In this document: one piece after another, positions 1 to 26,721 of the stretch
How the letters are laid out: every line of letters starts with the position of its first letter
Numbering within the stretch: the first letter of the stretch is position 1
Source: Chloroflexota bacterium
GTDB taxonomy: Bacteria > Chloroflexota > Dehalococcoidia > DSTF01 > JACRBR01
Assembly (NCBI GenBank): GCA_037440665.1
Contig: JBBITS010000003.1
Coordinates: 1 to 26,721, forward strand
Length of the DNA: 26,721 bases
Direction: 5' to 3'
Position numbers and translations under genes: made by a program
Notes under the pieces: model-generated
Database searches by the model: none
Seen by the model: only the letters and a program-made list of their open reading frames with translations
What the model was told of the DNA's origin: nothing

Positions 1-52
1 TCACCGCGGAGACTACACCGTCTTGTTTTTACAGCAATCCTGGGACGCGACC
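1..52. repeat. Left copy of a perfect 52-bp terminal inverted repeat
   Basis: TCACCGCGGAGACTACACCGTCTTGTTTTTACAGCAATCCTGGGACGCGACC is the exact reverse complement of 26670..26721; identity ends at base 53. Confidence 0.97.
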
Positions 53-76
53 CCTTCGAACCATCAGGAGCGCGCA

Positions 77-1339
77 ATGACGACCACCGCCAAGGAGATC
101 TACGAGATCGGCGAAATCCCACCCATCGGGCAGGTGCCCGAGTACATGTACGCCCAGCTCATCCGCCAGAGCCGCCACGGCGACCCCGTCAATGCCTTCC
201 AGATCGAGAAGGTGCGCGTACCCGAACTGAAGCCAGACGAGGTGCTGGTGTTCGTCATGGCCGCCGGCATCAACTTCAACAACGTCTGGGCGGCACGCGG
301 ACTCCCCGTCGACATCGTCAAGCTCCACAAGCAGCAGGGCGACCCCGGCGACGAGGAGGGGTTCCACATCGGCGGCAGCGACGCCTCCGGCATCGTCTAC
401 GCCGTCGGCAGTGAGGTCACCAACGTCAAGGTCGGCGACCGCGTCGTCATCCACTGCGGCATGTGGGACCGCGATGACCCATGGGTGAAGGCCGGCAAAG
501 ACCCCATCATGGCGCCGTCGTGCAAGATCTGGGGCTACGAGTCCAACTGGGGAAGCTTCGCGCAGTTCACCAAGGCCCAGGCCCACCAGTGCCTGCCCAA
601 GGCGGAGCATCTGACGTGGGAGGAGGCCGCCGCCTTCATGCTCGTCGGCGCTACGGCCTACCGCATGCTCACGGGCTGGCCGCCCCACGTAGTCGAGCCC
701 GGCGACGTGGTGCTGGTCTGGGGCGGCTCAGGCGGTCTCGGCTCGATGGCCATCCAGATCACTAAGGCCCTCGGCGGCACACCCGTCGCCGTCGTCTCCA
801 GCGACGAGCGCGGCCAGCACTGCATCAAGCTCGGCGCGAAAGGGTACGTCAACCGCAAGAACTTCAACCACTGGGGCATGATGCCCCACTGGACCGACAC
901 CGAGAAGTACAACGAGTGGGTGATGGGCTGCCGCGCCTTCGGCAAAGCCGTGTGGGACATCCTCGGCGAGCGCAAGAACCCGCGCATCGTGTTCGAGCAC
1001 CCCGGCGAGGACACCGTACCGACGTCGATCTTCGTCTGCGACAATGGCGGCATGGTCGTCATCTGCGCCGGCACGACGGGCTACAACGCCGTGGTCGACC
1101 TGCGCTACCTCTGGATGCGACAGAAGCGGTTCCAGGGCTCGCACTTCGCCAACGACGATCAGGCGGCGGGCATCAACCAGCTCGTCATCGACGGCAAGGT
1201 GAACCCGGCGCTGGCGAAGGTCTACAAGTTCGAGGAGACGGGCCTCTGCCACCAGCTCATGATGGAGAACCGCGCTTCCGAGGGGAACATGGCGGTCCTC
1301 GTCGGCGCGCCGAAACCTGGCCTGAAGGACCTGCCGTAG
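77..1339 (+). CDS. ccr: Crotonyl-CoA carboxylase/reductase (MDR family enoyl-CoA carboxylase/reductase)
   Basis: Motifs [72 protein letters not shown] and GNMAVLV all match the Ccr family. Start placed at ATG 77 behind AGGAG; the TTG at 23 lies inside the repeat. Confidence 0.93.
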
Positions 1340-1387
1340 GAGAACCCAGAACCGGCGGGGCGCAGAGACATCTTCGGAGGCGGCGTC

Positions 1388-1813
1388 ATGACCGACGACA
1401 ACGTCCTCGGCATCAAGGTTGGCGACAGGGCCGATTTCACGAAGACCGTCACCGGTGACGACATCGTGGCGTTCGCGAACGTCACCGGCGATACGAATCC
1501 CTTGCACCTCGACGACGCCTACGCCGCGAAGACGCGCTTCAAGCAACGCATCGCCCACGGGATGCTGTCGGCGGGGTTCATCTCGGCGGCGCTGGGCACG
1601 AAGCTCGCGCCCCACGCCTGCGTCGTCTACCTCAGCCAGAGCATGCGCTTCCAGCGTCCGGTGTTCATCGGCGACACCATGACGGCCACCGTCGAGGTCA
1701 CGAAGGTCGATCCCCAGCGCCGGTTCGTCACGGTCGCCACCACCTGCGCCAACCAGAAGGGCGAGGAGCTTCTGACCGGCGAGGCGATGGTCCTGCTCGA
1801 CCCGGTGGAGTGA
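1388..1813 (+). CDS. MaoC-family (R)-specific enoyl-CoA hydratase (PhaJ/CroR-like)
   Basis: Hydratase-2 motif FANVTGDTNPLHLD...RIAHGML with the Asp/His dyad; GGAGG RBS; hot-dog-fold size of 141 aa. Confidence 0.9.
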   Translation: MTDDNVLGIKVGDRADFTKTVTGDDIVAFANVTGDTNPLHLDDAYAAKTRFKQRIAHGMLSAGFISAALGTKLAPHACVVYLSQSMRFQRPVFIGDTMTATVEVTKVDPQRRFVTVATTCANQKGEELLTGEAMVLLDPVE

Positions 1814-1937
1814 GAGCGGCCACGGCGCTCGACTCCGGCCGGCCACCCAACGACCAATAGACGCGCCTGCCGCTGACTTACGGCTCTGTGCGGCACTCCC
1901 CCACCAGGAGCATCCTGATATCGCAAGGAGGAGCCGC

Positions 1938-2141
1938 ATGCGCACTCCAATCGGACGCAAGCTGCTGGAGATGACGCGGACGCTGCTGACCCTCGGTTTC
2001 GCGCGCCCGCCGGGGCCGCCGGTCGAGCCCATCGCGCGCGAAGAAGAGCCCCTGCAACCACCGCCCGAGCGCCACCTCTCCGAGCAGCGCCACGACGGGG
2101 CCGAGGACCGCGAACGCGCTGAGGGCCGCGAGCCTCGATAG
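1938..2141 (+). CDS. Small hypothetical protein, 67 aa
   Basis: Strong AAGGAGG RBS just upstream of the ATG, GC3-rich codons, fills the gap before the convergent etfB. Confidence 0.6.
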   Translation: MRTPIGRKLLEMTRTLLTLGFARPPGPPVEPIAREEEPLQPPPERHLSEQRHDGAEDRERAEGREPR

Positions 2142-2148
2142 ACCGCAA

Positions 2149-2174
2149 GCCGCTGGTTCCCACGCTACAGCGGC
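2149..2174. terminator. Hairpin between convergent genes, possible terminator
   Basis: GCCGCTG-N12-CAGCGGC stem; no U-tract. Confidence 0.3.
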
Positions 2175-2180
2175 GCCGAT

Positions 2181-2990
2181 TCAGCGTTCCGACAGGTACT
2201 GGCCGATGCGCTCGAGAATCTGGCGCGCCTCGTCCTCCGGCGCGCCGGTGATGAACTCGCGACGCCGCTCCCGCGAGGCCGACTGCCCGACGCCGCCGAC
2301 GATCGTCGCCGAACCCTTGACTCCAACCTCTTCGAGATCGACCCCCAGGTCCTCGGCCGACCACACGGTCACCAGGTCCTGACCCTCGGCCCACGGCCGC
2401 AGCGTCCAGTCGAGAAAGCGCGGCTCATTGACGCCCGTCTTGACCGAGACGACGGCCGGCAGGGGCGCCAGCAGCAGTTCGTGCCCACCCTTGATCTCCC
2501 GCCGCGCCCGCAGGCGGCGGTTCCAGTAGTCGACTTCGAGTTCGATCGCGTACGTCACCTGCGGCGTTCCCAGCCACTCGGCGATGCCGGGCGGCACTTG
2601 CGCCGTCGCTCCGTCCGACGACTCCTCGCCGCAGAGAACCAGCTCGTAGCGGCCGATCTTTTCGATGGCCGCGGCCAGCGTCCGCGACGTGCCGAGGGTG
2701 TCAGCGCCGCCGAAGGCGCGGTCGCTGAGCAGGAAGGCGCGATCGGCGCCCATGCAGAGCGCCAGCCGCAGGTAGCGTTCGAAGAACGGCGGCCCCATGG
2801 AAAGCACGCTGATGCTGCCACCGTGGGCCTGCTTTAACTGAAGCGCCATCTCCAGCGCGTTCATGTCGGGCGGATTGAAGATGGAGCGGGCATTGGCCCG
2901 GTCGAGCGTCATGGTCTCCTGGTTCACCCGCACTTCCTCAGGCATCGGGACGACCTTCATGCAGACGATGGTGTGCATCTCGCTCATCAC
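2181..2990 (-). CDS. etfB: Electron transfer flavoprotein beta subunit (EtfB/FixA)
   Basis: Motifs IVCMKVVP, NPPDMNALE, MGP, MGADRA, FGGADTLGTS, DGATAQVP, NEPR. The start may be GTG 2990, ATG 2987 or ATG 2978. Confidence 0.93.
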   Translation of the reverse strand: MMSEMHTIVCMKVVPMPEEVRVNQETMTLDRANARSIFNPPDMNALEMALQLKQAHGGSISVLSMGPPFFERYLRLALCMGADRAFLLSDRAFGGADTLGTSRTLAAAIEKIGRYELVLCGEESSDGATAQVPPGIAEWLGTPQVTYAIELEVDYWNRRLRARREIKGGHELLLAPLPAVVSVKTGVNEPRFLDWTLRPWAEGQDLVTVWSAEDLGVDLEEVGVKGSATIVGGVGQSASRERRREFITGAPEDEARQILERIGQYLSER

Positions 2991-4007
2991 TTAACCCGTC
3001 ACGGCTCGTGCCCCGGCGATCTGCTCCGCGAGGCAGGCGAGCACGGCGAACATGTCGTCTGTCACGCAGTAATCGGCGTGCTCGAAGATCGGCGCCTCCG
3101 GATCGGTGTTGATCGCCACGACGCATTCGGCCTTGTCGATGCCGACCGTGAAATGAATGGCGCCGCTGATCCCGCAGCAGATCACCAGCTTCGGCTGGGT
3201 GACCACACCCGTCTGCCCGATCTGCCGCGCGCGCGGAATCCATCCGAGGTCGGCCGCCACGCGCGTCCCGCCGATCTCGGCGTCCAGCAGGCCCGCCAGA
3301 CGCTGCGCCAGTTCGAGGTCGCCACGCGCGCCGCGCCCTACCGCGACGACTATCCCGGCGCGCGTCAGGTCTGGCTCCTCGGAAACGGAGCGCTCCAGCA
3401 CGTGGACGCGAAAGTCGGCCGCGTCAAGGCTCGCAGGCAGCGCCCGGATCTCGCCCTTTCGTTTCAGGTCCGGCTCGGGTTGCGCGAAGATGCCGGGCCG
3501 GACGGTCGCCATCTGCGGGCGATGTTCGGGGCAGAGGATCGTAGCTACGATGCCGCCGCCGAAGCCCACGACCTCGCCCGAAAGCAGACGCCGCTCCGGG
3601 TCGATGGTCAGGCCCGTGCAGTCGGCGGTCAGGCCGGTGCGCAGACGCACGGCCAGCCTGCCGGCCAGGTCGCGGCCGTTGGGCGTCGCGCCGAGAAGCA
3701 GCACGTCTGGCTTTCGCTCCAGCGCCAGGTGGTGAACGACAGAGGTGAAAGGCTCGGTCGTGTACACCTGAAGATCGGGATGCTCGACGACCAGCACCTC
3801 GTCTGCGCCGCACGCGACGGCCCGCGCAGGCGAGTCGCCGAGGGCGTAGCCCACCAGCAGCCCCGTCAGCGGGCAGTCCAGCGCGTCAGCCAGTTCCCGC
3901 CCTTTACCAAGCAGCTCCAGCGAGACGCTCTCGAGCTTCCCCTCTTCCTGCTCCAGGAACACCCAGACGCCGCGGGCGTCGGCCGGTCCGTACAGGCTGC
4001 TGGTCAT
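2991..4007 (-). CDS. etfA: Electron transfer flavoprotein alpha subunit (EtfA/FixB) with atypical flavin-contact residues
   Basis: Motifs GRDLAGRLA, GLTADCT, RPQMATVRPG, VAVGRG, QIGQTG, GISGA, AINTDPEAPIF. ATGA overlap with the upstream CCG-protein gene. Confidence 0.93.
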   Translation of the reverse strand: MTSSLYGPADARGVWVFLEQEEGKLESVSLELLGKGRELADALDCPLTGLLVGYALGDSPARAVACGADEVLVVEHPDLQVYTTEPFTSVVHHLALERKPDVLLLGATPNGRDLAGRLAVRLRTGLTADCTGLTIDPERRLLSGEVVGFGGGIVATILCPEHRPQMATVRPGIFAQPEPDLKRKGEIRALPASLDAADFRVHVLERSVSEEPDLTRAGIVVAVGRGARGDLELAQRLAGLLDAEIGGTRVAADLGWIPRARQIGQTGVVTQPKLVICCGISGAIHFTVGIDKAECVVAINTDPEAPIFEHADYCVTDDMFAVLACLAEQIAGARAVTG

Positions 4008-5338
4008 GACGCAACCCCCGCTTCAACCCGCGCCGGCTTGGCGAGCGCCCAGGCCAGTATCTCAGCGACGTCGGCGACCCGGATGCTGGCGTCGCCGGGG
4101 ATGCTGTCCTCGAGGCAGGAGACGCAGTGCGGGCACGCCGAACCGATGATTTCGGCGCCCGTCTCTCGCGCCTCGGCGACGCGCACGCTGGCGAAGCGTT
4201 CGTTGGCGGCGGTCTCCAGCCACATGCGGCCGCCGCCGCCGCCGCAGCACAGCGCCTCCTCGCGGTTGTGGCGCATCTCGAGCAGTTCCACGCCGGGGAT
4301 GCTCGCGAGCACTTCGCGCGGCGAGTCGTAGTCGCCGTTCTGCCGCCCCAAGTAGCACGGGTCGTGGAAGGTCACCTTCAGGGGCAGCTCGCCCTCGACG
4401 CGAAGGCGCCCGCTGGCGATCAGCTCACGCAGGTATTGCGTGTAGTGCAACGCCCTGAACTCCGGCGGCATGTCGAAGTGATGCAGGAACTGATCGAGGC
4501 AGTGTGGCGAGACGGTCACGACCGTTCTCACGCCCAGCTCCCGGAACAGCTTCGAGCCTTCGGCGGCGATGTCGTCGGCGTAGTCCGCGTGCCCGGCGTT
4601 GCGAACGGCGTCGCCGCAACAGGGTTCGCGATCCTTCAGCACGCCGAACTCGACGCCGGCGGCGCGAAGGACCTGTACGACGGCGCGCGCGATCTTCTGG
4701 ATGCGCGGGTCGTAGCTCGCCGTGCACCCGGCGTACAGCAGGACTTCCTGGTCACCCGAGAAATCCGGGAGGTCGAGCCCCTTCATCCAGTCCGAACGCT
4801 GCGATGGCGGCCGGCCGTAGGGATTGCCGTCCCAGTAGACATTCCAGAGCAGCGTAGGGAATCCCTGCGGCTCCTCGCGGTCGCGCCAGGCGAGGCCCCG
4901 GAGGGCCAGAATCACCTCGGGGATGTCCACCCCGCGCGGGCACAGCGCCTCGCAGCGCCCGCACGTCGTACACAACCACACAGCTTCCGGCCAGCCCGGA
5001 GCGCCCATCTGCGCCTCGCGCACCAGGCGGCGGATCAAAACGGGCTCCGACTTCACCTGCCCCCACGGGCAGATCGCCGTGCACACGCCGCACTGGAAGC
5101 ACTGCGCGGCCAGGCCTCGCGTCGCCACGACCACCCTCTCCCAAAGCGCGTCATCGAGCACCAGCACGTCGCCGTCGGGTTGAGAGATGCCCGGGATGGT
5201 CGCGAGGTCCATATCAAGCTTCCTCCTGCCGGCCCGCGTGTACGCGTCGCTGTCTTCCGGCATGGCCGCTTCCTCTCTTGCATCGAGCCACAGCTTCCTG
5301 CGGCCAGCGCGCGTGATGTCGCCATAGGCCGACGTCAT
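4004..5338 (-). CDS. HdrD/GlpC-like Fe-S oxidoreductase (two [4Fe-4S] motifs plus two CCG domains)
   Basis: CFQCGVCTAICP, CTTCGRCEALCP, YAGC...CCG...SPHC, FHDPCYLGR...CCGGGGG...ACPHC. Alternative start at ATG 5212 with an AGGAGG RBS. Confidence 0.9.
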   Translation of the reverse strand: MTSAYGDITRAGRRKLWLDAREEAAMPEDSDAYTRAGRRKLDMDLATIPGISQPDGDVLVLDDALWERVVVATRGLAAQCFQCGVCTAICPWGQVKSEPVLIRRLVREAQMGAPGWPEAVWLCTTCGRCEALCPRGVDIPEVILALRGLAWRDREEPQGFPTLLWNVYWDGNPYGRPPSQRSDWMKGLDLPDFSGDQEVLLYAGCTASYDPRIQKIARAVVQVLRAAGVEFGVLKDREPCCGDAVRNAGHADYADDIAAEGSKLFRELGVRTVVTVSPHCLDQFLHHFDMPPEFRALHYTQYLRELIASGRLRVEGELPLKVTFHDPCYLGRQNGDYDSPREVLASIPGVELLEMRHNREEALCCGGGGGRMWLETAANERFASVRVAEARETGAEIIGSACPHCVSCLEDSIPGDASIRVADVAEILAWALAKPARVEAGVAS

Positions 5339-5340
5339 GG

Positions 5341-8300
5341 CTACACCTTCTCCTCCACGAGATGGCCTTGCCGCCGCAGCACTTCGTCCATTTCGGCGAT
5401 CTTGCGGGCGAACTCTTTACCTTCGGACGCGGAGATCCACGCCAGTTGAAGCCGGTCAGGGTCCAGGCCTTCACGCGTCAGCTTGCGGTGCCACAGCTTG
5501 AACCGCTTGTCGGTCTGAGCGTTCGCGAAGTTGTAGTGGCAGTCCGAGCCGGTGGGCGTCAGCCGGCAGCCCGTGACCAGCACCGCGCCCGCGCCCTTCT
5601 TGAAGGCGTGCATGATGAAGTCCTCTTCCACGCGCGCTGAGCACATGGTGCGGATGATGAGGGCCGACGGCGGGTACTGGATCTTCTCCACGCCCGCCTG
5701 GTCGGCGCCCGCATACGAGCACCAGTTGCAGGCGAAGACGATGGTCTTCTTCTCGGGCTCGCGGGCGAGAGCGGCGTCGATCTGCGCCAGTATCTGCTCC
5801 TTGGTGAAGTACGGCATCTCGATGGCGTCGTAGTTGCACGCAGCCGCGCAGGCGCCGCAGCCCTGGCACGCGGCCTCGATGAACTTCATTTCGCCTTCCT
5901 TCACCTTACCGATGAGTTCGATGGCGCCGAACGGACACGCCTGCACGCAGATGCCGCAGACGATGCACTTGTCCTCGATGAGCCGGGAAGTGATGGGTTC
6001 CTTCTCGATGGTGTCCTGAGCCAGCAGATGCCCGGCCTTGGCGGCGGCGGCCAGCGCCTGCGCCACCGTCTCGCGCACGTCCTTGGGCGCCTGGACGGTT
6101 CCGGCCAGAAAGATGCCCGGCGAGCCCGCCTCGGCAGGGCCCAGTTTCGGGTGACGCTCCAGCAGGAAGCCGTCCTCGCTGTGGGCCACCTTGAGCTGGG
6201 CTGAGATGTCTTCGTCCTGAGGCGTCAGGCCGACGGTGAGAACCAGCGTGTCCGTCGGCGCCTGCAGCGTGCGGTCGCTGAGGTGATCGAGGAACTGGAC
6301 GGCGTGGCCGTCCCACGAGACCGAGGCTTCGGGCGCGCTGTCGGGATCGATGCGGAAGAACTGGACGCCCTTGCGGCCCGCCTCATCGTACAGCTCCTCG
6401 GCGTTGCGGCTGAAGGTGCGTATGTCTCGGTAGAGTACACGCACCTGCTTGCCCTGCTCGCGCAGGCGCAGCGCCTGCCCGATCATCGATTCGCAGCAGT
6501 AGCGCGAGCACCCGGAGCCGTTGCGCCGCGAGCCCACGCAGCCGATGAACGTCACGCGCTCTCCGCGCACCGGATGGCCGCGCTCGATGTCCAGGTTTGT
6601 GACGACGCGCGGATCGTCGCCGTAGCCGAACTCGACGGGCTCGTACGGGCGAGCGCCCATGGCCAGCACGACGGCCCCGGCCCGTATCTCGGCGCCGTCG
6701 GTGAGCCGCGCCGTGAAATTGCCGATGTGACCGCCGATGGTTTCGATCTCCGCGCCAAGGTGCACGGCCACGCCCGCCTCCTGCAACTCGCGCGCCTTCA
6801 CTTCAACGAACTCGCGCGCGGGAATGCCCGCCGGGGCGATCTCGTCGAGGTCGTTGAGCGTGCCGCCGAGGCGGTGCGTTCGCTCCACGAGGTGCGTCTC
6901 GTAACCCTGCGCCGCCAGGTTTGCGGCCGCCGACATGCCGGCGATGCCGCCGCCGATGACCAGCGCCTGCTGCACCATAGGCTGGTGGCTGATCTCCAGC
7001 GGCGCCAGCCGCCGCGCCTTCTCGACGCTCATCCGCACCATGTCGATGGCCTTTTGCGTGGCCTCCTCCTTCGTCTGCTTGTGCACCCAGGAGTCCTGAT
7101 TGCGCAGGTTCGCCATCTCGAGGAGGTACGGGTTCAGGCCCGCTTTGAGCATCACCCGTCTGAAGGTGGCCTCGTGCGTCTTGGGCGAGCACGCGGCGAT
7201 GACGATGCGGTTCGCCCGCGCCTCGCGTAGACGGCGCGCGATCTCGGCCTGCGTCGTGCCCGCGCACGAGAACATCGAGGAGTCGGCGTAGACCACGCCC
7301 TCCATCTGTCGCGCGGCCTCGACCACCGACTCGATGTCGACTACGCCCGCTATGTTGCTCCCGCAGTGACAGATGTTGACCCCGATTCGCACGGTCTCGA
7401 TGTCGTCCTGGGGCTCTCCGGCTTCGGGCTCCGGCCACGTGCGTTCGTCCAGATGGGTCAGCGCCCAGGCCGCTGCCGCGCCCGCTTCGGCGACGCTGTC
7501 GGGGATATCCTTCAGGCCTATCGCGCATCCTGCCGCGTAGACGCCGGAGCGCGTCGTCGCCGAAAGACCGCCCATGCGTTCGCGGCTCTTCACGAACCCG
7601 TCCGTATCGATATCGAAGCCCATCACCCCAGCGAGCCCTTCGAGGCCCGCTGGCGGCCTGGCAGCCGTGGCCAGCACCACCATGTCCACCTCTGCGGTCT
7701 GGACGCGGCCGGCGTCGGTGTCCTCATACCGGACGCTGATCCGATCGCCTGCGGGTTCGACGGAGGCGGGCCGCCCTCTGATGAACCGAGCCCCTTCGTC
7801 ACGCGTGCGCTGGTAGAAGGCATCGAAGCCCTTGCCGTAGGCGCGCATGTCCATGTAGAGCACAGTGACGTCGCCGACACCGTGATCCCGCGCCTGGAAC
7901 GCTTGCTTCACCGAGTACATGCAGCAGAAGCGCGAGCAGTGGCGGTAGAAGCGCACGTCGCGCGAGCCAACGCAGAGGACGAACAGGATGCTCTCTGGGT
8001 GCTGGCCGTTGGACGGCTTCACGATCTCGCCGCCGGTGGGGCCCGCCGAAGTCAGCAGGCGCTCGAACTCCATCGATGTCAGCACGTCGGGGTGGGCGCC
8101 GTACCCGAACCCGCGCAGGAGCGCCGGGTCGATGAGGTCGAAGCCCGTCGCGACGATGGCCGAACCGACCGTGCGCTCGACGACGCGCTCGCGCGGCTGC
8201 ATGAAGTCGATGACCTTCGGCAGGCAGGCCTCCATGCAGCGGCCGCAGGGCAGGTAGTTGGGCGGATCGTTCAGGCAGTGCTCCAGGTCGATGATATACG

Positions 8301-8727
8301 CGCCGGGCACTGCCTGCGGGAACGGCGTGTAGATGGCCTTGCGGGAGGCCATCGCCACGTCGAACTCGTTGGGCAGGACGACGGGGCAGGCCTCGACGCA
8401 GAGGTTGCAGCGCGTGCAGTCGTCCTCGACAAACCGCGACTTGTGGCGGATGCGCACGCGGAAGTCGCCGGGCTCGCCTTCGAAGCCGACGACCTCGGCC
8501 GGCGACAGAATCTCGATGTTGGGGTGCTCGCTGACCTCGGACAGCTTCGGAGCCTCGATGCAGATGGAGCAGTCGAGGGTGGGGAAGTTCTTGTCCAGGC
8601 CCGCCATCTTGCCGCCGATGGCCGGGCTGGCCTCGACCAGAACCACGCGGGCGCCCGATTCGGCGAGGTCCAGCGCCGCCTGCACCCCGGCGATGCCACC
8701 GCCCACGACCAGCACGGAATCGCTCAC
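5341..8727 (-). CDS. hdrA: Tandem HdrA-HdrA-MvhD fusion flavoprotein (heterodisulfide reductase subunit A family), 1128 aa
   Basis: Two GGGIAG FAD domains; DKNFPTLDCSIC; inserted ferredoxin; CVGSR...CSRxCC twice; internal CHCGSNIAG domain; C-terminal ferredoxin with two [4Fe-4S] motifs; MvhD motifs ACNWCSY, MCSARV, GC...DCHY. Confidence 0.92.
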   Translation of the reverse strand: MSDSVLVVGGGIAGVQAALDLAESGARVVLVEASPAIGGKMAGLDKNFPTLDCSICIEAPKLSEVSEHPNIEILSPAEVVGFEGEPGDFRVRIRHKSRFVEDDCTRCNLCVEACPVVLPNEFDVAMASRKAIYTPFPQAVPGAYIIDLEHCLNDPPNYLPCGRCMEACLPKVIDFMQPRERVVERTVGSAIVATGFDLIDPALLRGFGYGAHPDVLTSMEFERLLTSAGPTGGEIVKPSNGQHPESILFVLCVGSRDVRFYRHCSRFCCMYSVKQAFQARDHGVGDVTVLYMDMRAYGKGFDAFYQRTRDEGARFIRGRPASVEPAGDRISVRYEDTDAGRVQTAEVDMVVLATAARPPAGLEGLAGVMGFDIDTDGFVKSRERMGGLSATTRSGVYAAGCAIGLKDIPDSVAEAGAAAAWALTHLDERTWPEPEAGEPQDDIETVRIGVNICHCGSNIAGVVDIESVVEAARQMEGVVYADSSMFSCAGTTQAEIARRLREARANRIVIAACSPKTHEATFRRVMLKAGLNPYLLEMANLRNQDSWVHKQTKEEATQKAIDMVRMSVEKARRLAPLEISHQPMVQQALVIGGGIAGMSAAANLAAQGYETHLVERTHRLGGTLNDLDEIAPAGIPAREFVEVKARELQEAGVAVHLGAEIETIGGHIGNFTARLTDGAEIRAGAVVLAMGARPYEPVEFGYGDDPRVVTNLDIERGHPVRGERVTFIGCVGSRRNGSGCSRYCCESMIGQALRLREQGKQVRVLYRDIRTFSRNAEELYDEAGRKGVQFFRIDPDSAPEASVSWDGHAVQFLDHLSDRTLQAPTDTLVLTVGLTPQDEDISAQLKVAHSEDGFLLERHPKLGPAEAGSPGIFLAGTVQAPKDVRETVAQALAAAAKAGHLLAQDTIEKEPITSRLIEDKCIVCGICVQACPFGAIELIGKVKEGEMKFIEAACQGCGACAAACNYDAIEMPYFTKEQILAQIDAALAREPEKKTIVFACNWCSYAGADQAGVEKIQYPPSALIIRTMCSARVEEDFIMHAFKKGAGAVLVTGCRLTPTGSDCHYNFANAQTDKRFKLWHRKLTREGLDPDRLQLAWISASEGKEFARKIAEMDEVLRRQGHLVEEKV

Positions 8728-8730
8728 GGC

Positions 8731-9270
8731 CTACGCCTCCTGACCCGCGTGCGTGTACCCCGCATCGAAGGCCTCCATGTTCAGCGCCACGAAGCGCTCC
8801 CGCACCGACGACCGGATGGCTTCCTCCATCGCCGGGCGGCTGACAGCCTGCGTGACCGCCGTGAAGAACCCCAGCATCACCACGTTGGCCGCCATGCGGT
8901 TCCCCAGGCGTTCGGCGATCGCCGTCGCCGGGATTTTGTGAATGGGCCAGCCCAGACCAGCGGGCAGCTCCACCAAGGTTTCGTCGACGAGCACTTGGCA
9001 GTTCTCGGCGAGGTCGGAGACGTACTTGTGAGCGGCCTCCTGCGACATCACCACGAGGACGTCCGGTTGGCTGACCATCGGGTAGTCGATGGGCATGTCG
9101 TCCACCACGAGCTGCGCCGCGCAGGCGCCACCGCGCGCCTCCGGCCCGTACGACTGCGTCACCACCGCCTCCTTGCCGTCGTGCAACGCCGCCGCCCGGC
9201 CCGTGATCAGCCCCGCCAGGATGATTCCCTGGCCACCGAAGCCGGCGAAGCGGATCTCCCGGCGGCTCAT
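8731..9270 (-). CDS. korC: 2-oxoacid:ferredoxin oxidoreductase gamma subunit (KorC/OorC-like)
   Basis: MSRREIRFAGFGGQG, QSYGPEARGG, ANVVMLG. True start is ATG 9270 (ATGA overlap with the beta gene), inside the longer track ORF 8731..10017. Confidence 0.92.
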   Translation of the reverse strand: MSRREIRFAGFGGQGIILAGLITGRAAALHDGKEAVVTQSYGPEARGGACAAQLVVDDMPIDYPMVSQPDVLVVMSQEAAHKYVSDLAENCQVLVDETLVELPAGLGWPIHKIPATAIAERLGNRMAANVVMLGFFTAVTQAVSRPAMEEAIRSSVRERFVALNMEAFDAGYTHAGQEA

Positions 9271-11250: not shown

Positions 11251-11525
11251 GGGCCGCCTCCCACGTTCTCGGTGAAGATGGCGAACTCGGGGCAGATGAC
11301 CTGACAGAAGCCGCAGTTGACGCAGGCTTCCTCTTTGCCCGCGCTGACGACGGGGTAGTGGTAGCCCTTGACGTTCATGCCCTGTGACTCCTCGAGGACG
11401 TCCTCGGGGCAGAACTCGATGCAGAACTTGCAGCCCTTGCAGCGGTCAGGGATTGTGTAGACCTGTCCGCGCGGCAGAACCTGCCGTCCGAGGTCGAGAG
11501 GGCGGCGGACGAACGCGGCCACCAT
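11247..11525 (-). CDS. korD: Ferredoxin-like delta subunit (two [4Fe-4S]) of the 2-oxoacid oxidoreductase
   Basis: CKGCKFCIEFCP and CVNCGFCQVICP; GTGA overlap with the alpha gene. Start at ATG 11525 preferred over 11561 but uncertain. Confidence 0.88.
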   Translation of the reverse strand: MVAAFVRRPLDLGRQVLPRGQVYTIPDRCKGCKFCIEFCPEDVLEESQGMNVKGYHYPVVSAGKEEACVNCGFCQVICPEFAIFTENVGGGP

Positions 11526-11742
11526 GGCTGCAACCGCCTTACCGGCCCGCCGCGGGAACACGAGCCACCGCTATAGCCCTGCCGGATGGCAGGTACCAGC
11601 GACTCCCGGCAGACGCACCAGGGCGTCTTAAGGTTCTGAGACCATGCTGTATCGGCGGGGTAGCTTCAGAAAAGGGCCGAACGTACCAGAGCGAACCATA
11701 TCCATTAGCTGGCAGCCCTGTGGGGGAGTTACCCGGGGGCGC

Positions 11743-16956: not shown

Positions 16957-16970
16957 AGAACATATGTCCG
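16957..16970. promoter_or_regulatory. Possible LexA (SOS) box
   Basis: AGAAC-ATAT-GTCCG; one core mismatch to GAAC-N4-GTTC, spacer fits RNRY. Confidence 0.3.
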
Positions 16971-17124
16971 CCAACCGCTGCAAGCCTGGGGATTGAGCAG
17001 TCTGAGGCGCGAAGGGAAGCTAAATCGCGGTCGAGCGCTCAGAACGTTCCAGAATCATTTCATTCGCCCATAAAGCGCTGCTGGGCTGTCACCAAAGGGC
17101 CGAGAATCCAGACAGGCGAGCAAT

Positions 17125-20100: not shown

Positions 20101-21834
20101 GGCGTCATCGGCGTGGCGGTGGACATCACAGAGCGCAGGCGCGCCGAGGAGACGCGCGCGCGGCTGGCAACTATCCTCGAGGCGACGCCGGACTTCGTGG
20201 GCACCATCGACGCCGAGGGACGCGTGCTGTACCTGAACAGCGCCGGCCGGGCCATGCTGGGCATCGGCCCTGACCAGGACATATCACAACAGGACGGGCT
20301 TTCTATCCACCCCGATTGGGCCCGCGTGCTGCTCGAAAAGGAAGGCATACCCGCCGCCAGCCGGGACGGCGTGTGGCACGGCGAAACCGCCATCGTCAGT
20401 CCCGAGGGGGGCGAGATACCAGTATCACAGGTGATCGTCGCGCACAAGCAGACCGATGGCTCGGTCAGCTTCCTGTCGACCATCGCCCGGGACATCAGTG
20501 AGCGAAAGCTCTTCGAGGATCAGTTGATACACGCCGCCAGCCACGATCCCTTGACCGGTGTGTTCAACCGCCGTCGCCTCGAGGAAGACCTGGAGCGCGA
20601 GATGGCGCACCTCCGGCGCTACGGCGGCTCTGGCGCGCTGATGTTCCTCGACCTAGACGACTTCAAGGCCGTGAACGACAGCCTCGGCCACCGCGTCGGG
20701 GACGAGATGCTCACGAGCGTCGCTCAGGTCCTGCGCGAGCGCCTGCGGGAAACCGACGTACTGGCGCGTCTGGGCGGCGACGAGTTCGCCATCCTCATGA
20801 CACGGGCCACCGCCCGCGAGGCGAAGACGGCCGCGCGCGGCATCCTACAGACGCTCCGCCAGCACACAGTCCTCGTCGAGGGACGGCCCTTGAGCACCAC
20901 GGCCAGCATCGGCATCGCCCTCATGCCGGAGCACGGGCAGACTGTCGACGAACTCCTGGCTCACGCCGACCTCGCCATGTACGAGGCCAAGGAACACGGT
21001 CGCAACAGCGTGGTCGTCTACGATCCGAAGCGAAACCGCCAGTCGATGACCGAGTCGCGTCTCGACTGGAAGCGCCGCATAGCCGAGGCGCTGGAACGCG
21101 ACCTGTTCCACCTCTACTGCCAGCCCATCTTCGACCTGAAGTCCGGAACCGTCGCTAAGTACGAACTGCTGCTGCGCATGCCGGGAGAGAATGGCGAGGT
21201 CATTCTGCCCGGCGCGTTCCTCGACACGGCCGAGCGATTCGGACTGATCCAGGACATCGACCGCTGGGTCGTGCGCCAGGCCATCAGCCTCATCGCGGAG
21301 CAGCGACGCATCGGCCGCGACCTGCGCGTGGCCGTGAACGTCTCCGGCAAGGCCATCGCTGACGCTGAGCTGTTGCGGATGATCCGCCGCGACCTGGCGG
21401 CCAGCGGCGTCAACCCGGCCAGCCTCACGCTGGAGATCACGGAAAGCGTCGCCATCGCCGACATGACGCAGGCGCAGAAGTTCGTCAACAGCCTCAAGTC
21501 CACGGGTTGCCAGTTCGCGCTCGACGACTTCGGTGTAGGCTTCTCATCCTTCTACCACCTGAAGAGCCTGCCGGTGGACGAGCTGAAGATCGACGGCAGC
21601 TTCATCCGCTATCTGACGCGCGACCCCGTTGACCAGCATCTGGTCAAGGCCATCGTCGAGGTCGCCGAAGGCCTGGGCCGCGCCACCATAGCCGAGTTCG
21701 TGGGCGACGATGACACGGTGCGCCTCCTCAAGGACCTCGGCGTCGGCTTCGGCCAGGGATTCCACCTCGGCCGGCCAGTCCCCGTCGCGACCGTCCTGGA
21801 CGACGCAGGCCAGGCTACCGGGCGCGCCGCCTGA
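17125..21834 (+). CDS. Membrane-anchored diguanylate cyclase/phosphodiesterase (multi-TM sensor, PAS, GAF, four PAS, GGDEF, EAL)
   Basis: About 300-aa multi-TM N-terminus; repeated D(I/V)(T/S)xR(K/R) PAS ends; SHDPLTG; DLDDFK.VND; RETD I-site; GGDEF; YELLLR; VNVS; DDFGVGFSS; KID. Confidence 0.93.
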   Translation: MARPTTSAADAGPDGWRGDGGLLRIVVAGALLFFALYAAGIIIRPGELFLRVQSSVIYNVPALAGLALAVRAIRHSSGRERVGWACLAIVLAVWGVAEWSYAYYDFVLGAEVPFPGWPDAFYYAGYLAYIPAIPLLTFPEKRLKDRRWVIDVATVMVVCGTVIWHYVVHPVAAAEGYSSFSAMVALGYLLLDFGLLTALVVTLYASGGHFSLRSRVLLMATLALVLADSAYTYAVNTTGYDMSGSPMDLGWVANYLLIAVAFVLPPEEEKEVTPSKQSLAGLAIPYFGVAPLAAVVLMEEARTGNFTAVLLGAALAVGLVIIRQLLTLADNLALYRRLEEQSQSRLALLEAQSELGEIFIALEGRRITYANGAACQVSGYTAEELHALDSVVSLVAPDVRDTFRESARAILNDSLLVRSFETVIARKDGERVHVEVTVKAIPSVGVRRLVVIGRDVTERKRTEQALARQTALVRLVQEASLAANEAASVEEAFQMTIDLVCAHTGWPVGHVYVPAEDGTGELAPTDIWRLDDPDRFAAFRQATEATRLASGIVLPGRVHATRKPAWIVDIAKDGNFPRARHASDIGVRGAFAFPVLVGTEVAAVLEFFMPEPAEPDIDLLESVAHIGRQIGRVVERERARETIRRSEERYRDLFENANDIVYTHDLSGRFTSVNKAGLQATGYTLEEALQENMAHILSPEHFEQAREMVLRKLRGEPTTAHELEILTKDGRRIPVEVRTRLLYENGRPIGVQGIARDITERKEAEEALRHANERLRALVESSPLAVISLDLDLIVQSWNSAAETMFGWTAGEIVGHPYPLVPPDRQEEFQSLFSKVVHGEAISAFETKRARKDGSVTDVSIAVAPLRDRNEEVTGIITVIADVTARKQAENALRESEERLRSVVANAPVMLFAIDSQGVFTLAEGKGMAGVGLAPRDLVGRSAFHLFRAFPDVTANIPRALAGETFDAIVDAGNVVFDVHYGPVRDASGAVAGVIGVAVDITERRRAEETRARLATILEATPDFVGTIDAEGRVLYLNSAGRAMLGIGPDQDISQQDGLSIHPDWARVLLEKEGIPAASRDGVWHGETAIVSPEGGEIPVSQVIVAHKQTDGSVSFLSTIARDISERKLFEDQLIHAASHDPLTGVFNRRRLEEDLEREMAHLRRYGGSGALMFLDLDDFKAVNDSLGHRVGDEMLTSVAQVLRERLRETDVLARLGGDEFAILMTRATAREAKTAARGILQTLRQHTVLVEGRPLSTTASIGIALMPEHGQTVDELLAHADLAMYEAKEHGRNSVVVYDPKRNRQSMTESRLDWKRRIAEALERDLFHLYCQPIFDLKSGTVAKYELLLRMPGENGEVILPGAFLDTAERFGLIQDIDRWVVRQAISLIAEQRRIGRDLRVAVNVSGKAIADAELLRMIRRDLAASGVNPASLTLEITESVAIADMTQAQKFVNSLKSTGCQFALDDFGVGFSSFYHLKSLPVDELKIDGSFIRYLTRDPVDQHLVKAIVEVAEGLGRATIAEFVGDDDTVRLLKDLGVGFGQGFHLGRPVPVATVLDDAGQATGRAA

Positions 21835-21890
21835 CGCCATCGGCGTGAGCCTGCAGGCGCGCGTCGGGTAAGATGGCGCAGGAGATGGCC

Positions 21891-22577
21891 ATGCTTGACC
21901 GGATCAAAATCGCGCCGTCCATCCTCACCGCCGACTTCCTGCGCCTGGGCGAGCAGATGCGCGAGGCCGAGCAGGCAAGCGCCGATTACCTGCACCTCGA
22001 CGTGATGGACGGCCGCTTCGTCCCGCCCATAACGTTCGGCGAGCTGGTAGTTGAAGCCATCCGCGGCATGACGTCGCTGCCGCTGGACATACACCTGATG
22101 ATCGAGCGCCCGGAGGACCACGTCGAATCGTTCGTCCGCGCCGGGGGCGACATCATCAACGTGCACGTCGAGGCGACAGCGCACCCACACAGGACGCTTC
22201 AGGGCATCCGGGCACTAGGCCGCCGCGCGGGCATCTGCCTCAACCCCGGCACGCCCGCCGAGGCTGTCGCCGAGCTGCTGGGCGACGTGGACCAGGTGAT
22301 GGTGATGGCCGTCAACCCCGGTTGGGGCGGCCAGAAGTTCATCCCCTCCGCTCTGCCCAAGATCCGCCGCCTTCGCCAGATGATGGCCGAGCGCGGCCTC
22401 GACGCCGACATCGAGGTAGACGGCGGCGTGAAGGCAGGCAACGCCGCGTCGTGCGTCGAAGCGGGAGCGCGGGTGCTGGTGGCCGGCTCGGCCGTGTTCA
22501 ACGCCGAGGCGACGGTCGCCGAGAACATGCGTGCGCTCCGGCGGGCCATAGAAGCGGCGGCGCTCGCCCGGGACTGA
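21891..22577 (+). CDS. rpe: Ribulose-phosphate 3-epimerase
   Basis: IAPSILTADF, HLDVMDG.FVP, DIHLM, VNPGWGGQKF, EVDGG, VAGSA. Start at ATG 21891 behind AGGAG. Confidence 0.95.
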   Translation: MLDRIKIAPSILTADFLRLGEQMREAEQASADYLHLDVMDGRFVPPITFGELVVEAIRGMTSLPLDIHLMIERPEDHVESFVRAGGDIINVHVEATAHPHRTLQGIRALGRRAGICLNPGTPAEAVAELLGDVDQVMVMAVNPGWGGQKFIPSALPKIRRLRQMMAERGLDADIEVDGGVKAGNAASCVEAGARVLVAGSAVFNAEATVAENMRALRRAIEAAALARD

Positions 22578-22606
22578 TTGTCACCATCACCGCCAGGATG
22601 TACGAT
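22578..22606 (+). promoter_or_regulatory. Sigma70-type promoter for the coxMSL-like operon, probably leaderless
   Basis: TTGTCA-N17-TACGAT, ending 8 nt before GTG 22615; no SD sequence. Confidence 0.6.
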
Positions 22607-22614
22607 CGAACCCC

Positions 22615-23505
22615 GTGAAACGATTCGACTACGCCGCGCCCGCTTCCCTGCGGGAAGCCATCGACACGCTGCGCCAACGCGCGGACGGCGTGCGGCTGCT
22701 CGCGGGCGGCACCGACCTCCTTCCACAGATCAAGGAGGGCGGTCTCTGGCCCTCCCACGTAGTGAGCCTGCGCCGAGTACCCGAGCTGCGCGGCATCTCA
22801 TTCGATCCCTCGACGGGCCTGCGCGTCGGCGCGGCCGAGCTGCTCTCCGACGTCGCCGCTCACGAGGTAGTGAGCCGCCACTACCAGGCGCTGGCTGAAG
22901 GCGCGGGCATCGTCGGCTCCGTGCAGACCCGGAACATGGGAACCATAGGCGGCAACGTCTGCAACGCCGCGCCCTCGGCCGACACGGCCCCGCCCCTGCT
23001 CGTCTTCGACGCCGCGGTGGTCATCGCCAGCCGAGACGGCGAGCGGCAGCTCCCTCTGAGCGAGTTCTTCCTCGGTCCCGGCCGCACAGCTCTGGCGCCG
23101 GGCGAGATCGCCGTCGCGCTGGAGCTGCCGCCGCCAGCCGAACGCTCGGGCAGCGTCTACCAGCGCCACACGCCGAGGAAGATCATGGACATCGCCGTCG
23201 TGGGCGTCGCCTGCCGCCTCGTACTCGCCCCGGACGAGAGCATGGCCGAGGCGCGCATCGCCCTCGGCGCCGTCGCGCCCACATCCATACGCTGCCCGGA
23301 TGCCGAGGCGCTGCTGCAGGGCCGCGCGCCTTCAGTCGCACTATTCGAGCAGGCCGCAGATGCAGCGCGCGAGGCCAGCAGCCCCATCACCGACGTACGC
23401 GGCTCGGCGGAATTCCGGCGCGAACTCGTGCGCGTCATGACGGCGCGATGCCTCGCAATCGCTGCTGAGCGCGCGCGTCTCTTGAGCGAGAGGACTTGCA
23501 GGTGA
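22615..23505 (+). CDS. Xanthine/CO dehydrogenase family FAD-binding medium subunit (CoxM-like)
   Basis: LLAGGTDL, QTRNMGTIGGN, SADTAP, DVRGSAEFR. Confidence 0.92.
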   Translation: MKRFDYAAPASLREAIDTLRQRADGVRLLAGGTDLLPQIKEGGLWPSHVVSLRRVPELRGISFDPSTGLRVGAAELLSDVAAHEVVSRHYQALAEGAGIVGSVQTRNMGTIGGNVCNAAPSADTAPPLLVFDAAVVIASRDGERQLPLSEFFLGPGRTALAPGEIAVALELPPPAERSGSVYQRHTPRKIMDIAVVGVACRLVLAPDESMAEARIALGAVAPTSIRCPDAEALLQGRAPSVALFEQAADAAREASSPITDVRGSAEFRRELVRVMTARCLAIAAERARLLSERTCR

Positions 23506-23981
23506 AGCGACCCATCACCCTCAAGATCAACGGCCAGCGCCACGATGTGCTCGTCGAGCCCAGCGCCACGCTGCTCGAAGCCGTGCGCGATCAGGCGGGA
23601 CTTATGGGCGCGAAGGAAGGCTGCGGCACCGGCGACTGCGGCGCCTGCTCGATGATCGTCGACGGGCGGCTGGTGACCTCGTGCCTTATGCTGGCCGTCG
23701 AAGCCGAGGGCAGCGACATCACCACCATCGAGGGCCTGGCCCGCGACGGCCAGCTTCATCCGCTGCAGCAGGCGTTCATCGACCTGGGCGCCGTGCAGTG
23801 CGGCTACTGCATCCCCGGCATGATCCTGGCTGGCAAAGCGCTGCTGGACGCCAACCCGAACCCTGCGCCCGACGAGATCCGCCGCGCCATCGCCGGCAAC
23901 CTCTGCCGCTGCACGGGCTACACGAAGATCGTCGAGGCCATCGCCGCCGCCGCAACGCAACTCCAGGGAGCCACGCCATGA
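23502..23981 (+). CDS. Small subunit with two [2Fe-2S] sites (CoxS-like)
   Basis: CGTGDCGAC...C, QCGYC, NLCRCTGY; GTGA overlap with the medium subunit gene. Confidence 0.93.
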   Translation: MKRPITLKINGQRHDVLVEPSATLLEAVRDQAGLMGAKEGCGTGDCGACSMIVDGRLVTSCLMLAVEAEGSDITTIEGLARDGQLHPLQQAFIDLGAVQCGYCIPGMILAGKALLDANPNPAPDEIRRAIAGNLCRCTGYTKIVEAIAAAATQLQGATP

Positions 23982-26293
23982 CCACCACCGCCGAACCCAC
24001 GCGGACGGAACACGCCGTCGTCGGCCAGCGCATCCCACGCATTGAGGGCCGCAAGAAAGTCACCGGGCAGTCAGTGTACGCCGCCGACGTTTCCCTGCCC
24101 GGTATGCTCTACGCGAAGCTCCTGCACGCGCCCCACGCCCACGCGCGCATCAAGGGCATCGACACGTCCCGCGCTCGCATGCTCGAAGGCGTCGAGAGCG
24201 TCGTGACCGCCAGCGACCTACCGCAGTTCGAGGCGCGCCGCCGGTCCAACCGCGCTTACGTGCTCCTCGCGAGCGACGAGGTCGTCTTCGCAGGACAGCC
24301 CGTGGCGGCAGTCGTCGCAACGTCCTCGGCCATCGCCGATGAGGCGTTGGACCTCATCGCCGTCGAGTACGAAGAGCTGCCGGTCGTACTGGACCCCGTC
24401 GCAGCCATGGACCCGGGCGCGCCCCTGGCTCGCCAGCCCATCGAGGAGATCGATCGGTCGGAGGCGCGGGGCCACGCGACCGTAGACGTTCGCGAGGAAG
24501 AGGGCGCGGGCAAACCCACTAACGTCGCGTCGCAGGTGCGCTTCACCCGCGGCGACGTCGCACAGGGGTTCGCCGAGGCGGATGCCGTTGTCGAAGACAC
24601 ATGGCGCACGCCGTTCATGCACCAGGGCTACATCGAGCCACACGCGACCGTCGCCGGCTTCGACCCCGTGTCGGGCGAACTCACCCTGTACACGGGCACG
24701 CAGGGCCAGTTCTTCGTGCGGGACCAGATCAGCAATATGCTCCGCATACCGGAGACCAAGCTGCGGGTCGTCGGCATGGAGCTGGGCGGCGGCTTCGGCG
24801 GCAAGGTGTTCCTGACGCAGGCCCTGGCGTCGGTGCTATCGTTCATCGCGAAGCGGCCCGTCAAGCTCGTGTACACGCGGACCGAGGAAATGACCTCGGC
24901 CACGCCTTCAGGTGGCTGCGTCGCCGAAGTGAAGCTGGGCATGAAGCGCGACGGGACGATCACGGCGCTTGACGCCCGGCTCATATACGACACCGGAGCG
25001 TTCCCAGGCGCCTCGGCCGTCGTCGGAGCGATCCTGCTGGGTGGCTACTACCGCTTCCCTAACCTCGACATCAGGTCCTACGAGGTGCTGACCAACAAGG
25101 TCAGTGTCGGCGCCATCCGCGCGCCCGCCGCCCACAACGCCACGTTCGCCATCGAGTCGGCGCTGGACGAAGCATGCCGCCGGCTTGGCCTCGACCCGGT
25201 GGAGACGCGACTGAAGAACGCCGTCGCCGAGGGCGACGAGATGCCCACCCAACAGAAGTACCCGCGCATCGGCCTCGTCGAAACGCTGCAGGCCGCCCGC
25301 GAGAGCGCCGCCTGGCGAGAACGAGAGGCGTGGAAGACCGCTGCCCCGCCAGGGACGAAGCGCGGCGTGGGCCTTGCCATCGGCGGCTGGCTGGGCGGAC
25401 TACAGCCCGCCAGCGCCGTCGTTGAACTCAACGGCGACGGCACCATCAACGTCGTCGTCGGCGCCAACGACATCACCGGGACCAACACGGCGTTCGCGCA
25501 GATCGCCGCTGAGGAGCTGGCGGTCGACGTGAGCGAGGTCAGCGTCGTCACGGGTGATACGCGGACCGCGCCCTTCGCCGGCATGAGCGCGGGATCGAAG
25601 ACGCTGTTCACCGTCGGCCGCGCCGTGAAGGAAGCGGCCGAGGACGCCCGCCGCCAGATCATTGCTGTAGCCCGCGAGCGCCTGGGCGCGACCGAGGAGG
25701 ACGAGCTGGAGCTTTCAGGCGGAGAGGTCCGCATCAAGGGTCAGCCCGATAAGGCGCTCTCGTACCGCCGCCTGGGCGGCATCACGACGGGGTTTGGCGC
25801 GGCATATGCGCCCATCATCGGGCGAGGCTCCATCACGGCCCGCCGCCAGGCGCCAGGCTTCGCCGCCCACGTCGCCGCCGTCGAGATCGACGACGCCACC
25901 GGCGAAGTGACGCTCCGGCGCTGGACAACGGCGCAGGACGTCGGGTTCGCCGTCAACCCGCTGAACGTCGAGGGGCAGCTTCAGGGCGGTTCAGCGCAGG
26001 GCATCGGCTCCGGGCTCTGGGAGGAGATGGTGTTCGACGTACAGGGCCACCTGCGCAACCCGAGCCTGCTCGACTACCGCATGCCTACCGCCGCCGACCT
26101 GCCCGACATCGAGACGATCCTCGTTGAGACGCCATCGGAGGACGGCCCCTACGGGGCGCGCGGAGTCGGCGAGCCGTCCATCGTGCCGGGCGCGGCGGCC
26201 GTCGCCAACGCCGTCCGCGACGCCCTGGGCGTCCGCGTAAACGACGCGCCCATCACGCCCGAACGCGTCCTGCGCGCTTTGGGGCGGATCTAG
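23978..26293 (+). CDS. Molybdopterin-binding large subunit of the xanthine oxidase family (CoxL-like, not form I CODH)
   Basis: KVTGQSVY, HQGYIEPH, GGGFGGK, AIRAPA loop, GQLQGG..QG.G, GARGVGEP. ATG 23978 has an ATGA overlap with the small subunit gene. Confidence 0.92.
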   Translation: MTTTAEPTRTEHAVVGQRIPRIEGRKKVTGQSVYAADVSLPGMLYAKLLHAPHAHARIKGIDTSRARMLEGVESVVTASDLPQFEARRRSNRAYVLLASDEVVFAGQPVAAVVATSSAIADEALDLIAVEYEELPVVLDPVAAMDPGAPLARQPIEEIDRSEARGHATVDVREEEGAGKPTNVASQVRFTRGDVAQGFAEADAVVEDTWRTPFMHQGYIEPHATVAGFDPVSGELTLYTGTQGQFFVRDQISNMLRIPETKLRVVGMELGGGFGGKVFLTQALASVLSFIAKRPVKLVYTRTEEMTSATPSGGCVAEVKLGMKRDGTITALDARLIYDTGAFPGASAVVGAILLGGYYRFPNLDIRSYEVLTNKVSVGAIRAPAAHNATFAIESALDEACRRLGLDPVETRLKNAVAEGDEMPTQQKYPRIGLVETLQAARESAAWREREAWKTAAPPGTKRGVGLAIGGWLGGLQPASAVVELNGDGTINVVVGANDITGTNTAFAQIAAEELAVDVSEVSVVTGDTRTAPFAGMSAGSKTLFTVGRAVKEAAEDARRQIIAVARERLGATEEDELELSGGEVRIKGQPDKALSYRRLGGITTGFGAAYAPIIGRGSITARRQAPGFAAHVAAVEIDDATGEVTLRRWTTAQDVGFAVNPLNVEGQLQGGSAQGIGSGLWEEMVFDVQGHLRNPSLLDYRMPTAADLPDIETILVETPSEDGPYGARGVGEPSIVPGAAAVANAVRDALGVRVNDAPITPERVLRALGRI

Positions 26294-26393
26294 TGGACGG
26301 CTCTGGCTGCTCAGTCGCGCGTCATGCATAGCGGCCACCTATCCGGATAGACATCACTTAGCCACCTCAGCCTCCAAGTTTGCGCCTGCCACT

Positions 26394-26414
26394 GCCCTGA
26401 TGCGACTTCAGGGC
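26394..26414 (+). terminator. Hairpin downstream of the large subunit gene, possible terminator
   Basis: GCCCTGA-N7-TCAGGGC followed by TTCTC. Confidence 0.3.
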
Positions 26415-26550
26415 TTCTCACGACGACCTTCAGCCTAGCCAATTAGGCTCGTATGATCTGCTAAGTAGACAATCCCCGCGCTGTCCTTCAGTCCGACGTG
26501 TCTGCGACCGATACTCTCGCGGCCCACACACTGGATTAGGGAGGTATCGC

Positions 26551-26709
26551 GTGAACATCACGAGCCCCAAGCACCCGATCTGGTGCGCGCCGACTCTAAC
26601 GGTTCTCGTGGCAGGCACAATGGCCGTTCACGCCGTCATCGCTGCAAGCGTGTGGTCAATCATCTGCGCGGTCGCGTCCCAGGATTGCTGTAAAAACAAG
26701 ACGGTGTAG
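26551..26709 (+). CDS. Putative 52-aa hydrophobic peptide or truncated gene whose stop codon lies inside the right repeat
   Basis: GGGAGGT RBS, GTG start, [52 protein letters not shown]; below the ORF-track length cut-off. Confidence 0.4.
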   Translation: MNITSPKHPIWCAPTLTVLVAGTMAVHAVIAASVWSIICAVASQDCCKNKTV

Positions 26710-26721
26710 TCTCCGCGGTGA
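26670..26721. repeat. Right copy of the perfect 52-bp terminal inverted repeat
   Basis: Exact reverse complement of bases 1..52. Confidence 0.97.

Follow-up and report, generated by a model that had tools for sequence, protein, structure and literature searches.

Perfect terminal inverted repeats on a Chloroflexota contig very likely mark assembly breaks in two copies of an IS256-family insertion sequence

The stretch of DNA analysed here, hereafter the window, comprises 26,721 nt and is the entire contig C3 (JBBITS010000003.1) of the Chloroflexota draft genome GCA_037440665.1 (here G000). It begins and ends with the same 52-nt sequence in inverted orientation. In a first-pass annotation, this was read either as two inverted ends of an insertion sequence (IS) at which the assembly broke and which would enclose transposon cargo, or as a large invertible segment, or as a mobilisable metabolic island. 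We are highly confident that the window is an ordinary chromosome contig, broken at two inverted copies of an IS256-family element present in about 30 copies. The main support comes from the multicopy nature of the repeat, the pairing of its two end types (A and B), an empty site at the left junction and the lack of mobility genes among the window reading frames.

According to this explanation, the contig would end on both sides inside copies of one high-copy IS. The terminal 52-mer would be the outer part of the left inverted repeat (IRL) of the element, and the true repeat would be the whole IS, about 1.4 kb long in relatives. The two flanking copies would lie in opposite orientation, both with their IRL toward the window, and this would produce the perfect "terminal inverted repeat". 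The left copy would be an independent copy-out/paste-in insertion with its own 8-9-bp target-site duplication, and the same is inferred for the right copy. The 26.6 kb between the copies would then be resident chromosome, lying between two of about 30 insertions (at least 32 in the genome).

G000 is a fragmented short-read assembly of a high-GC metagenome-assembled genome (MAG) of the Chloroflexota/Dehalococcoidia type, with 343 contigs, each of at least 2 kb, a size of 2.52 Mb and an estimated completeness of 84%. Positions 1-52 and 26670-26721 of the window are 100% reverse-complementary over 52 nt, a match far beyond chance. The repeat extends to both window ends, and on its inner edges identity is lost abruptly, with flanks that start, both read inward, with CCTTCGAA on the left and GCGCAGAT on the right. 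Both copies, the left one on the minus strand and the right one on the plus strand, are the outer 52 nt of the same IS end, which we call end A. The body of the left IS lies beyond the left end of the contig and that of the right IS beyond the right end, and a TGTAAA motif is found at 28-33 (TTTACA on the plus strand) and at 26689-26694. In this arrangement both flanking copies appear to face the window with their IRL, and their transposase genes would be directed outward. Reading frames of the window were chosen by third-position GC content (GC3) and then scanned against Pfam, and no transposase, integrase or other recombinase was found among all GC3-supported open reading frames (ORFs). The first-pass annotation had thus described both the sharp-edged terminal repeat and the lack of mobility genes correctly. 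Furthermore, BLAST of the window against the whole of G000 revealed no solo inverted repeat, IS remnant or other repeat inside it.

End A is present at 32 contig termini of G000, reading inward every time, and beyond its tip, which ends in ...GCGACC, the flank differs in each of the 32 contigs. A multicopy repeat was one of the outcomes that the first-pass annotation had listed as speaking against a mobile or invertible unit. Clustering of all 686 contig ends gave a second terminal class, end B, at 27 further termini. The two classes are identical at 21 of the outer 25 nt (22/28 over the outer 28 nt), and both carry TGTAAA at nt 20-25 from the tip. For the pairing of A and B, the flank outside each end A was compared with the reverse complement of the flank of a partner end B over the length of a target duplication. 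Seven clean pairs were found, five of 9 bp and two of 8 bp, and all were of the A-B type, as were three further, weaker ones; no A-A or B-B pair was seen in G000. By chance, about 0.013 A-B pairs would be expected at 8 bp (computed) and about 0.003 at 9 bp (estimated as 864 A-B end pairs/4^9), and a control with shifted flanks (flank bases 9-16) gave 0 pairs. A and B are opposite termini of a single IS, paired by 8-9-bp target-site duplications. With 59 IS ends among the 686 contig ends, about 2.5 contigs with an IS at both ends are expected and two are observed, C3 (A/A) and C337 (B/B). Any A/A or B/B contig automatically resembles a perfect terminal inverted repeat.

The length of the repeat reflects the assembly. 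The stubs of end A at contig ends measure 45-54 nt and those of end B 50-54 nt (one indel variant excepted), and the deepest extension of any contig into the repeat is 54 nt. Such lengths would fit de Bruijn assembly with a probable k of 55; the contig names of same-genus sister MAGs are SPAdes-style (NODE). The repeat ends at about 52 nt because the assembler followed unique DNA only about 52-54 nt into it. Where an IS breaks an assembly because it exceeds the read or k-mer length, each contig extends no more than k-1 bases into the repeat, and the repeat interior collapses into a short high-coverage contig, which is filtered out or left unbinned. The present case resembles such breaks in short-read and metagenome assemblies, and nothing material differs. 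Because all contigs are at least 2 kb long, a collapsed IS contig of about 1.4 kb would have been dropped, and the lack of PF00872 matches in a profile search of the bin is consistent with this. The suspicion raised in the first-pass annotation, that 52 is an assembler overlap and the real repeat is longer, is borne out by these stubs and by a JGI soil metagenome contig (L029), in which end A continues inward.

Relatives of the element were found with a degenerate pattern covering both ends, as complete elements inside long contigs of other soil MAGs. Four full-length relatives (L017, L018, L025 and L026) measure 1422-1461 bp (about 1.44 kb), against about 1.3-1.5 kb as the usual length in the IS256 family. 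Their left ends are identical to end A at 24-25 of 25 nt (24/25 in L017), their right ends resemble end B, and 8-bp target duplications are present in L017, L018 and L025, the three for which flanks were compared. Each relative has one transposase ORF, which starts about 80 nt from the IRL. In the Pfam scan, which covered L017 only, this ORF matched PF00872 (Transposase_mut, E = 3.9e-68), and the proteins of L018, L025 and L026 have N-termini near-identical to the L017 transposase. L029 carries the exact end A internally, next to an unrelated flank and with two extra bases, as in some G000 contigs. There, the sequence inward of end A reaches a ribosome-binding site (RBS) and, 83 nt from the tip, a GTG start codon. 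The resulting 30-aa peptide aligns with the N-terminus of the relatives' transposases via a shared PPSA motif (Smith-Waterman; 6-21 of 2000 shuffles reach the score). BLASTP of this peptide against the L017 transposase returned nothing, and an exact-pattern scan of the genome contig collection gave no match to the L029 interior. Because end A of L029 leads into a peptide that aligns with transposase N-termini, end A is, as judged from these sequences, the IRL.

Three hallmarks of the IS256 family are present: imperfect terminal inverted repeats (TIRs) within the usual range of roughly 24-40 bp (A and B, compared above), a subterminal 5'-TGTAAA-3' in both of them, and a target-site duplication of 8-9 bp. 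The transposase of the exact G000 element is predicted to be of the IS256/Mutator type. The element occurs beyond G000. Another Chloroflexota MAG has the exact end B at a contig terminus (L021), and the identical IS ends in L021 and L029 adjoin DNA unrelated to G000, which places the same element in other genomes or strains, at other sites. A search for the 42-nt core of end A with at most 3 mismatches in 40 relatives found none, a weak negative as repeats are often unassembled in MAGs.

A technical artefact, that is, an adapter, a linker or an assembler-made sequence on contig ends, would agree with the finding that end A occurs in G000 at contig termini only. However, the ends pair through target-site duplications, L029, an independent metagenome contig, has the sequence in its interior, and complete elements with a transposase gene, bounded by near-identical ends, are embedded in long contigs of other MAGs. 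The chance of an artefact is therefore practically negligible.

The left junction provides direct evidence for a single insertion. The left IS has a 9-bp target-site duplication, CCTTCGAAC, of which one copy lies at 53-61 (plus strand) and the other on a different contig, C233, at 3625-3633, directly before the end-B stub. No IS is present at this site in two same-genus genomes: in G002:C11 and G001:C230, the DNA homologous to C233 passes immediately into that homologous to window 65-1810. We reconstructed the junction by joining C233 to the window and removing one copy of the duplication, and then aligned the relatives. They align across it, and the alignment places a conserved upstream box, located on C233, in one stretch with the RBS and ATG of the first window gene. 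This gene (77-1339, plus strand) encodes a crotonyl-CoA carboxylase/reductase-like (CCR-like) Zn-dehydrogenase with the Pfam domains ADH_N and ADH_zinc_N, and has 90-91% identical orthologues in same-genus MAGs. The IS tip is located 24 nt upstream of its ATG, in a conserved intergenic region. The junction in G001 and G002 is an empty-site allele; the left IS inserted alone, and the DNA just inside the bracket is native there. Both the target-site duplication and the empty-site allele that the first-pass annotation had proposed to look for were thus recovered. Syntenic flanks in relatives, a further outcome that it had listed as speaking against a mobile unit, were found only at the left end.

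These data bear on a composite transposon, in which the two inverted IS and the 26.6 kb between them moved or still move as a unit, with redox or metabolic genes as cargo. IS256, whose hosts are Staphylococcus and Enterococcus, is known to form the composite transposon Tn4001, in which its copies flank aacA-aphD. The layout of the window fits formally, as here, too, two inverted IS256-family copies flank a block of non-transposition genes, and part of this block (roughly 1,810-11,700) is missing from same-family relatives. In Tn4001, however, the target duplication flanks the whole unit (PMC6496109), whereas the left IS of the window has the same 9-bp duplication on its own two sides and inserted alone. 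Furthermore, G001 and G002 show the C233 flank joined without a break to the initial 1.8 kb of what would be the cargo. The accessory block begins about 1.8 kb from the left end of the bracket and stops far short of the right IS, and the 6 kb at 20173-26277 are conserved in relatives. With about 30 copies in the genome, a contig bounded by two of them is expected by chance. Unlike the Tn4001 cargo, the 26.6-kb segment is best seen as resident chromosome with no sign of movement. Past movement as a composite transposon is largely refuted already, and we consider this explanation most unlikely. Of the first alternative in the first-pass annotation, the two inverted IS-end copies at an assembly break stand, and the transposon cargo does not, given the separate 9-bp duplication and the synteny in relatives.

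The DNA between the insertions (62-26660) has the features of ordinary chromosome in its Pfam content, its composition and its lack of internal repeats. It encodes the CCR-like dehydrogenase, a MaoC dehydratase, EtfB/EtfA, an HdrD-like protein, a 1128-aa HdrA-MvhD fusion, a four-subunit 2-oxoacid:ferredoxin oxidoreductase (OFOR), MMPL, ArsR, SDR and a TreT-like glycosyltransferase, as well as a 1569-aa PAS-GAF-GGDEF-EAL protein, ribulose-phosphate 3-epimerase (rpe) and a CoxM/S/L-type molybdenum hydroxylase. The GC content is 0.65-0.68, and each 5-kb window lies at the 13th-85th percentile of the genome-wide tetranucleotide distance. Compared with relatives, the window is a mosaic. Positions 65-1810 are syntenic with C233, after which the relatives go on into a homologue of another G000 contig, C65. 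The five closest genomes gave no DNA match to the region of about 1,810-11,700, which holds the Etf-Hdr-OFOR operon, and the 6 kb on the right (20173-26277) are conserved in G002:C89. The accessory block thus covers about 1.8-11.7 kb, possibly reaching to about 14.7 kb, and both limits are well inside the 26.7-kb bracket and away from the IS copies.

It could be suspected that the segment is a mobilisable metabolic island bounded by inverted repeats of its own, as the HdrA-MvhD-like gene was found in none of 24 same-family genomes, yet a counterpart with 80% identity is present in a different family of the order. Yet the terminal repeats belong to the IS and not to the segment, and both GC content and tetranucleotide distance are within the bulk of the genome in every 5-kb window. 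The segment also includes the housekeeping gene rpe and stretches conserved in relatives, and its island-like part reaches neither repeat. With a typical composition, and an accessory part that does not coincide with the bracket, the island of the first-pass annotation can be set aside as having almost no likelihood.

Inversion of a large segment would use the 52-bp repeats or the inverted IS as crossover sites, through a recombinase encoded outside or through homologous recombination. Inverted repeats of about 1.4 kb are in principle substrates for RecA-mediated inversion, and the gene order near window position 1,810 differs from that of the relatives. Yet this is extremely unlikely. The element, with its 32 copies of end A, is not a locus-specific recombination site, which argues against the invertible segment of the first-pass annotation, and the Pfam scans of the window ORFs gave no recombinase in or beside the segment. 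The matching flanks of the left IS indicate that it took no part in an inversion, as an inverted IS would carry mismatched flanks. Together with the collinearity of the left junction with relatives, this means that the un-inverted, ancestral state was assembled. The breakpoint near 1,810 is not at an IS and is without a repeat.

It is also very unlikely that the two inverted IS copies act together in any form, whether to move the 26.6-kb block as a very large composite transposon or to invert it by homologous recombination. If true, such joint action could help to explain the patchy occurrence of the OFOR-HdrA/MvhD-HdrD-EtfAB operon across the families of the order.

Several points weigh against the explanation by two independent insertions of an IS256-family element. 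The interior of the G000 element and its own transposase were never recovered, so that the assignment to the IS256 family rests on the ends, the duplications and the close relatives. The genome that holds L021, like G000, has no PF00872 match. The L029 peptide is not among the 120 listed matches of a protein search with the L017 transposase, all of which are at least 80% identical to the L017 type. Two related metagenome contigs, L027 and L028, indicate that an A-like end is not always on the same element. The linkage of C233, IS and window rests on the duplication and on synteny, not on reads. Finally, the duplication partner of the right junction is absent from all 27 end-B flanks and from every contig terminus of G000.

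L027 and L028 were considered as a source of the interior of the element, which would then encode a tyrosine recombinase. This was rejected, as their sequence departs from that of G000 and L029 right after the inverted repeat, and the repeat itself differs by a single-nucleotide polymorphism (SNP). L028 (375-1601) and L027 show an A-type inverted repeat with one SNP, followed by a different interior that encodes, on the opposite strand, a frameshifted tyrosine recombinase (PF00589) rather than a Mutator transposase. They could represent a chimeric or decayed element, or an inverted repeat captured beside an integrase.

The right IS is located downstream of coxL, at a distance of about 376 nt. 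Judged from the other copies, it would be an independent insertion, and its 8-9-bp target-site duplication is expected at 26661-26669 (plus strand, ...ATCTGCGC), with a partner contig that is not in the bin. The insertion cuts a small ORF (26551-26669, plus strand), predicted from its translation to encode a hydrophobic peptide. An RBS precedes its GTG at 26551, and the frame is interrupted after 40 codons, runs on into the IS and stops there. From these features, the small ORF may be a real gene. No homologue of it was found beside coxL in relatives or elsewhere in G000, and the same is true for a counterpart of the last 392 nt of the window.

Among known systems, the closest comparison is with IS256 itself and with ISCth4 of Clostridium thermocellum, an IS256-family element of 1,503 bp with imperfect TIRs, 8-bp duplications, 15 copies and copy-out/paste-in transposition (PMC7780238). 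The subterminal TGTAAA is conserved in the TIRs of the family (PMC7780238, citing Dodd et al. 1994). Like these elements, the one described here has imperfect TIRs of about 25-30 bp with TGTAAA, duplications of 8-9 bp and many copies (at least 32, versus 15 for ISCth4). Unlike them, for which A/T-rich targets are reported, it has duplicated sites that are GC-rich; furthermore, its host is a high-GC Chloroflexota-type MAG, and the G000 element is known from its ends alone.

These findings have practical consequences. A perfect inverted repeat touching both ends of a draft contig calls for caution, and should first be compared with other contig ends. G000 carries at least 32 IS256-family insertions, about one per 79 kb, and these many copies, together with at least two other families of contig-end repeats, explain the fragmentation of the assembly. 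The pairing of contig ends by target duplications provides free scaffolding, here seven clean contig joins. IS insertions also truncate ORFs and probably cut genes from their promoters, as for the CCR-like gene.

At the CCR-like gene, the IS splits a conserved upstream box (C233 3560-3633, ...GTGTATCATCCGCTCGCA..., conserved in G002) from the RBS and ATG (window 53-76). Because the IS sits between them, the native promoter or operator is probably no longer available to the gene. The inverted repeat has an outward TTTACA (-35-like) at 28-33; a hybrid promoter formed with the IS end was considered and rejected, as neither flank, when inspected by eye, offers a plausible -10 with a spacing of 17 nt.

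The OFOR(δαβγ)-HdrA/MvhD fusion-HdrD-like-EtfAB operon occupies window 2181-11561. Its HdrA-MvhD protein, absent from the same-family genomes as given above, has counterparts elsewhere in the order: four genomes, all from other families, encode proteins 68-80% identical to it. This suggests a patchy distribution of the operon, through transfer or repeated loss. The synteny breakpoint lies at about 1810-2180: after MaoC, G001 and G002 have the C65 homologue (from 4221 downward), whereas the window has EtfB. The 367-nt spacer at the breakpoint holds no repeat, and includes a small ORF with a good RBS and an ATG near 1938.

Other contig ends of G000 show further repeats. At the right end of C252, a 19-nt partial copy of the A tip (GCAATCC...GCGACC) is situated directly outside the end-A tip, and could stem from an insertion beside a remnant of another copy or from an aberrant transposition product. 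One further repeat family, with repeated GTAACC/GTTACC...GTACAC motifs, is found at 17 contig ends (e.g. C10, C43, C120, C154 and C224), and another, a palindromic sequence of the GGGGGACACCCCCAGA type, at 12 (e.g. C50, C54, C74, C78 and C302). Both are probably other mobile elements or repetitive extragenic palindromic (REP)-like repeats, which add to the fragmentation. On C60, a copy of the 17-end repeat family is interrupted by the IS256-type element.

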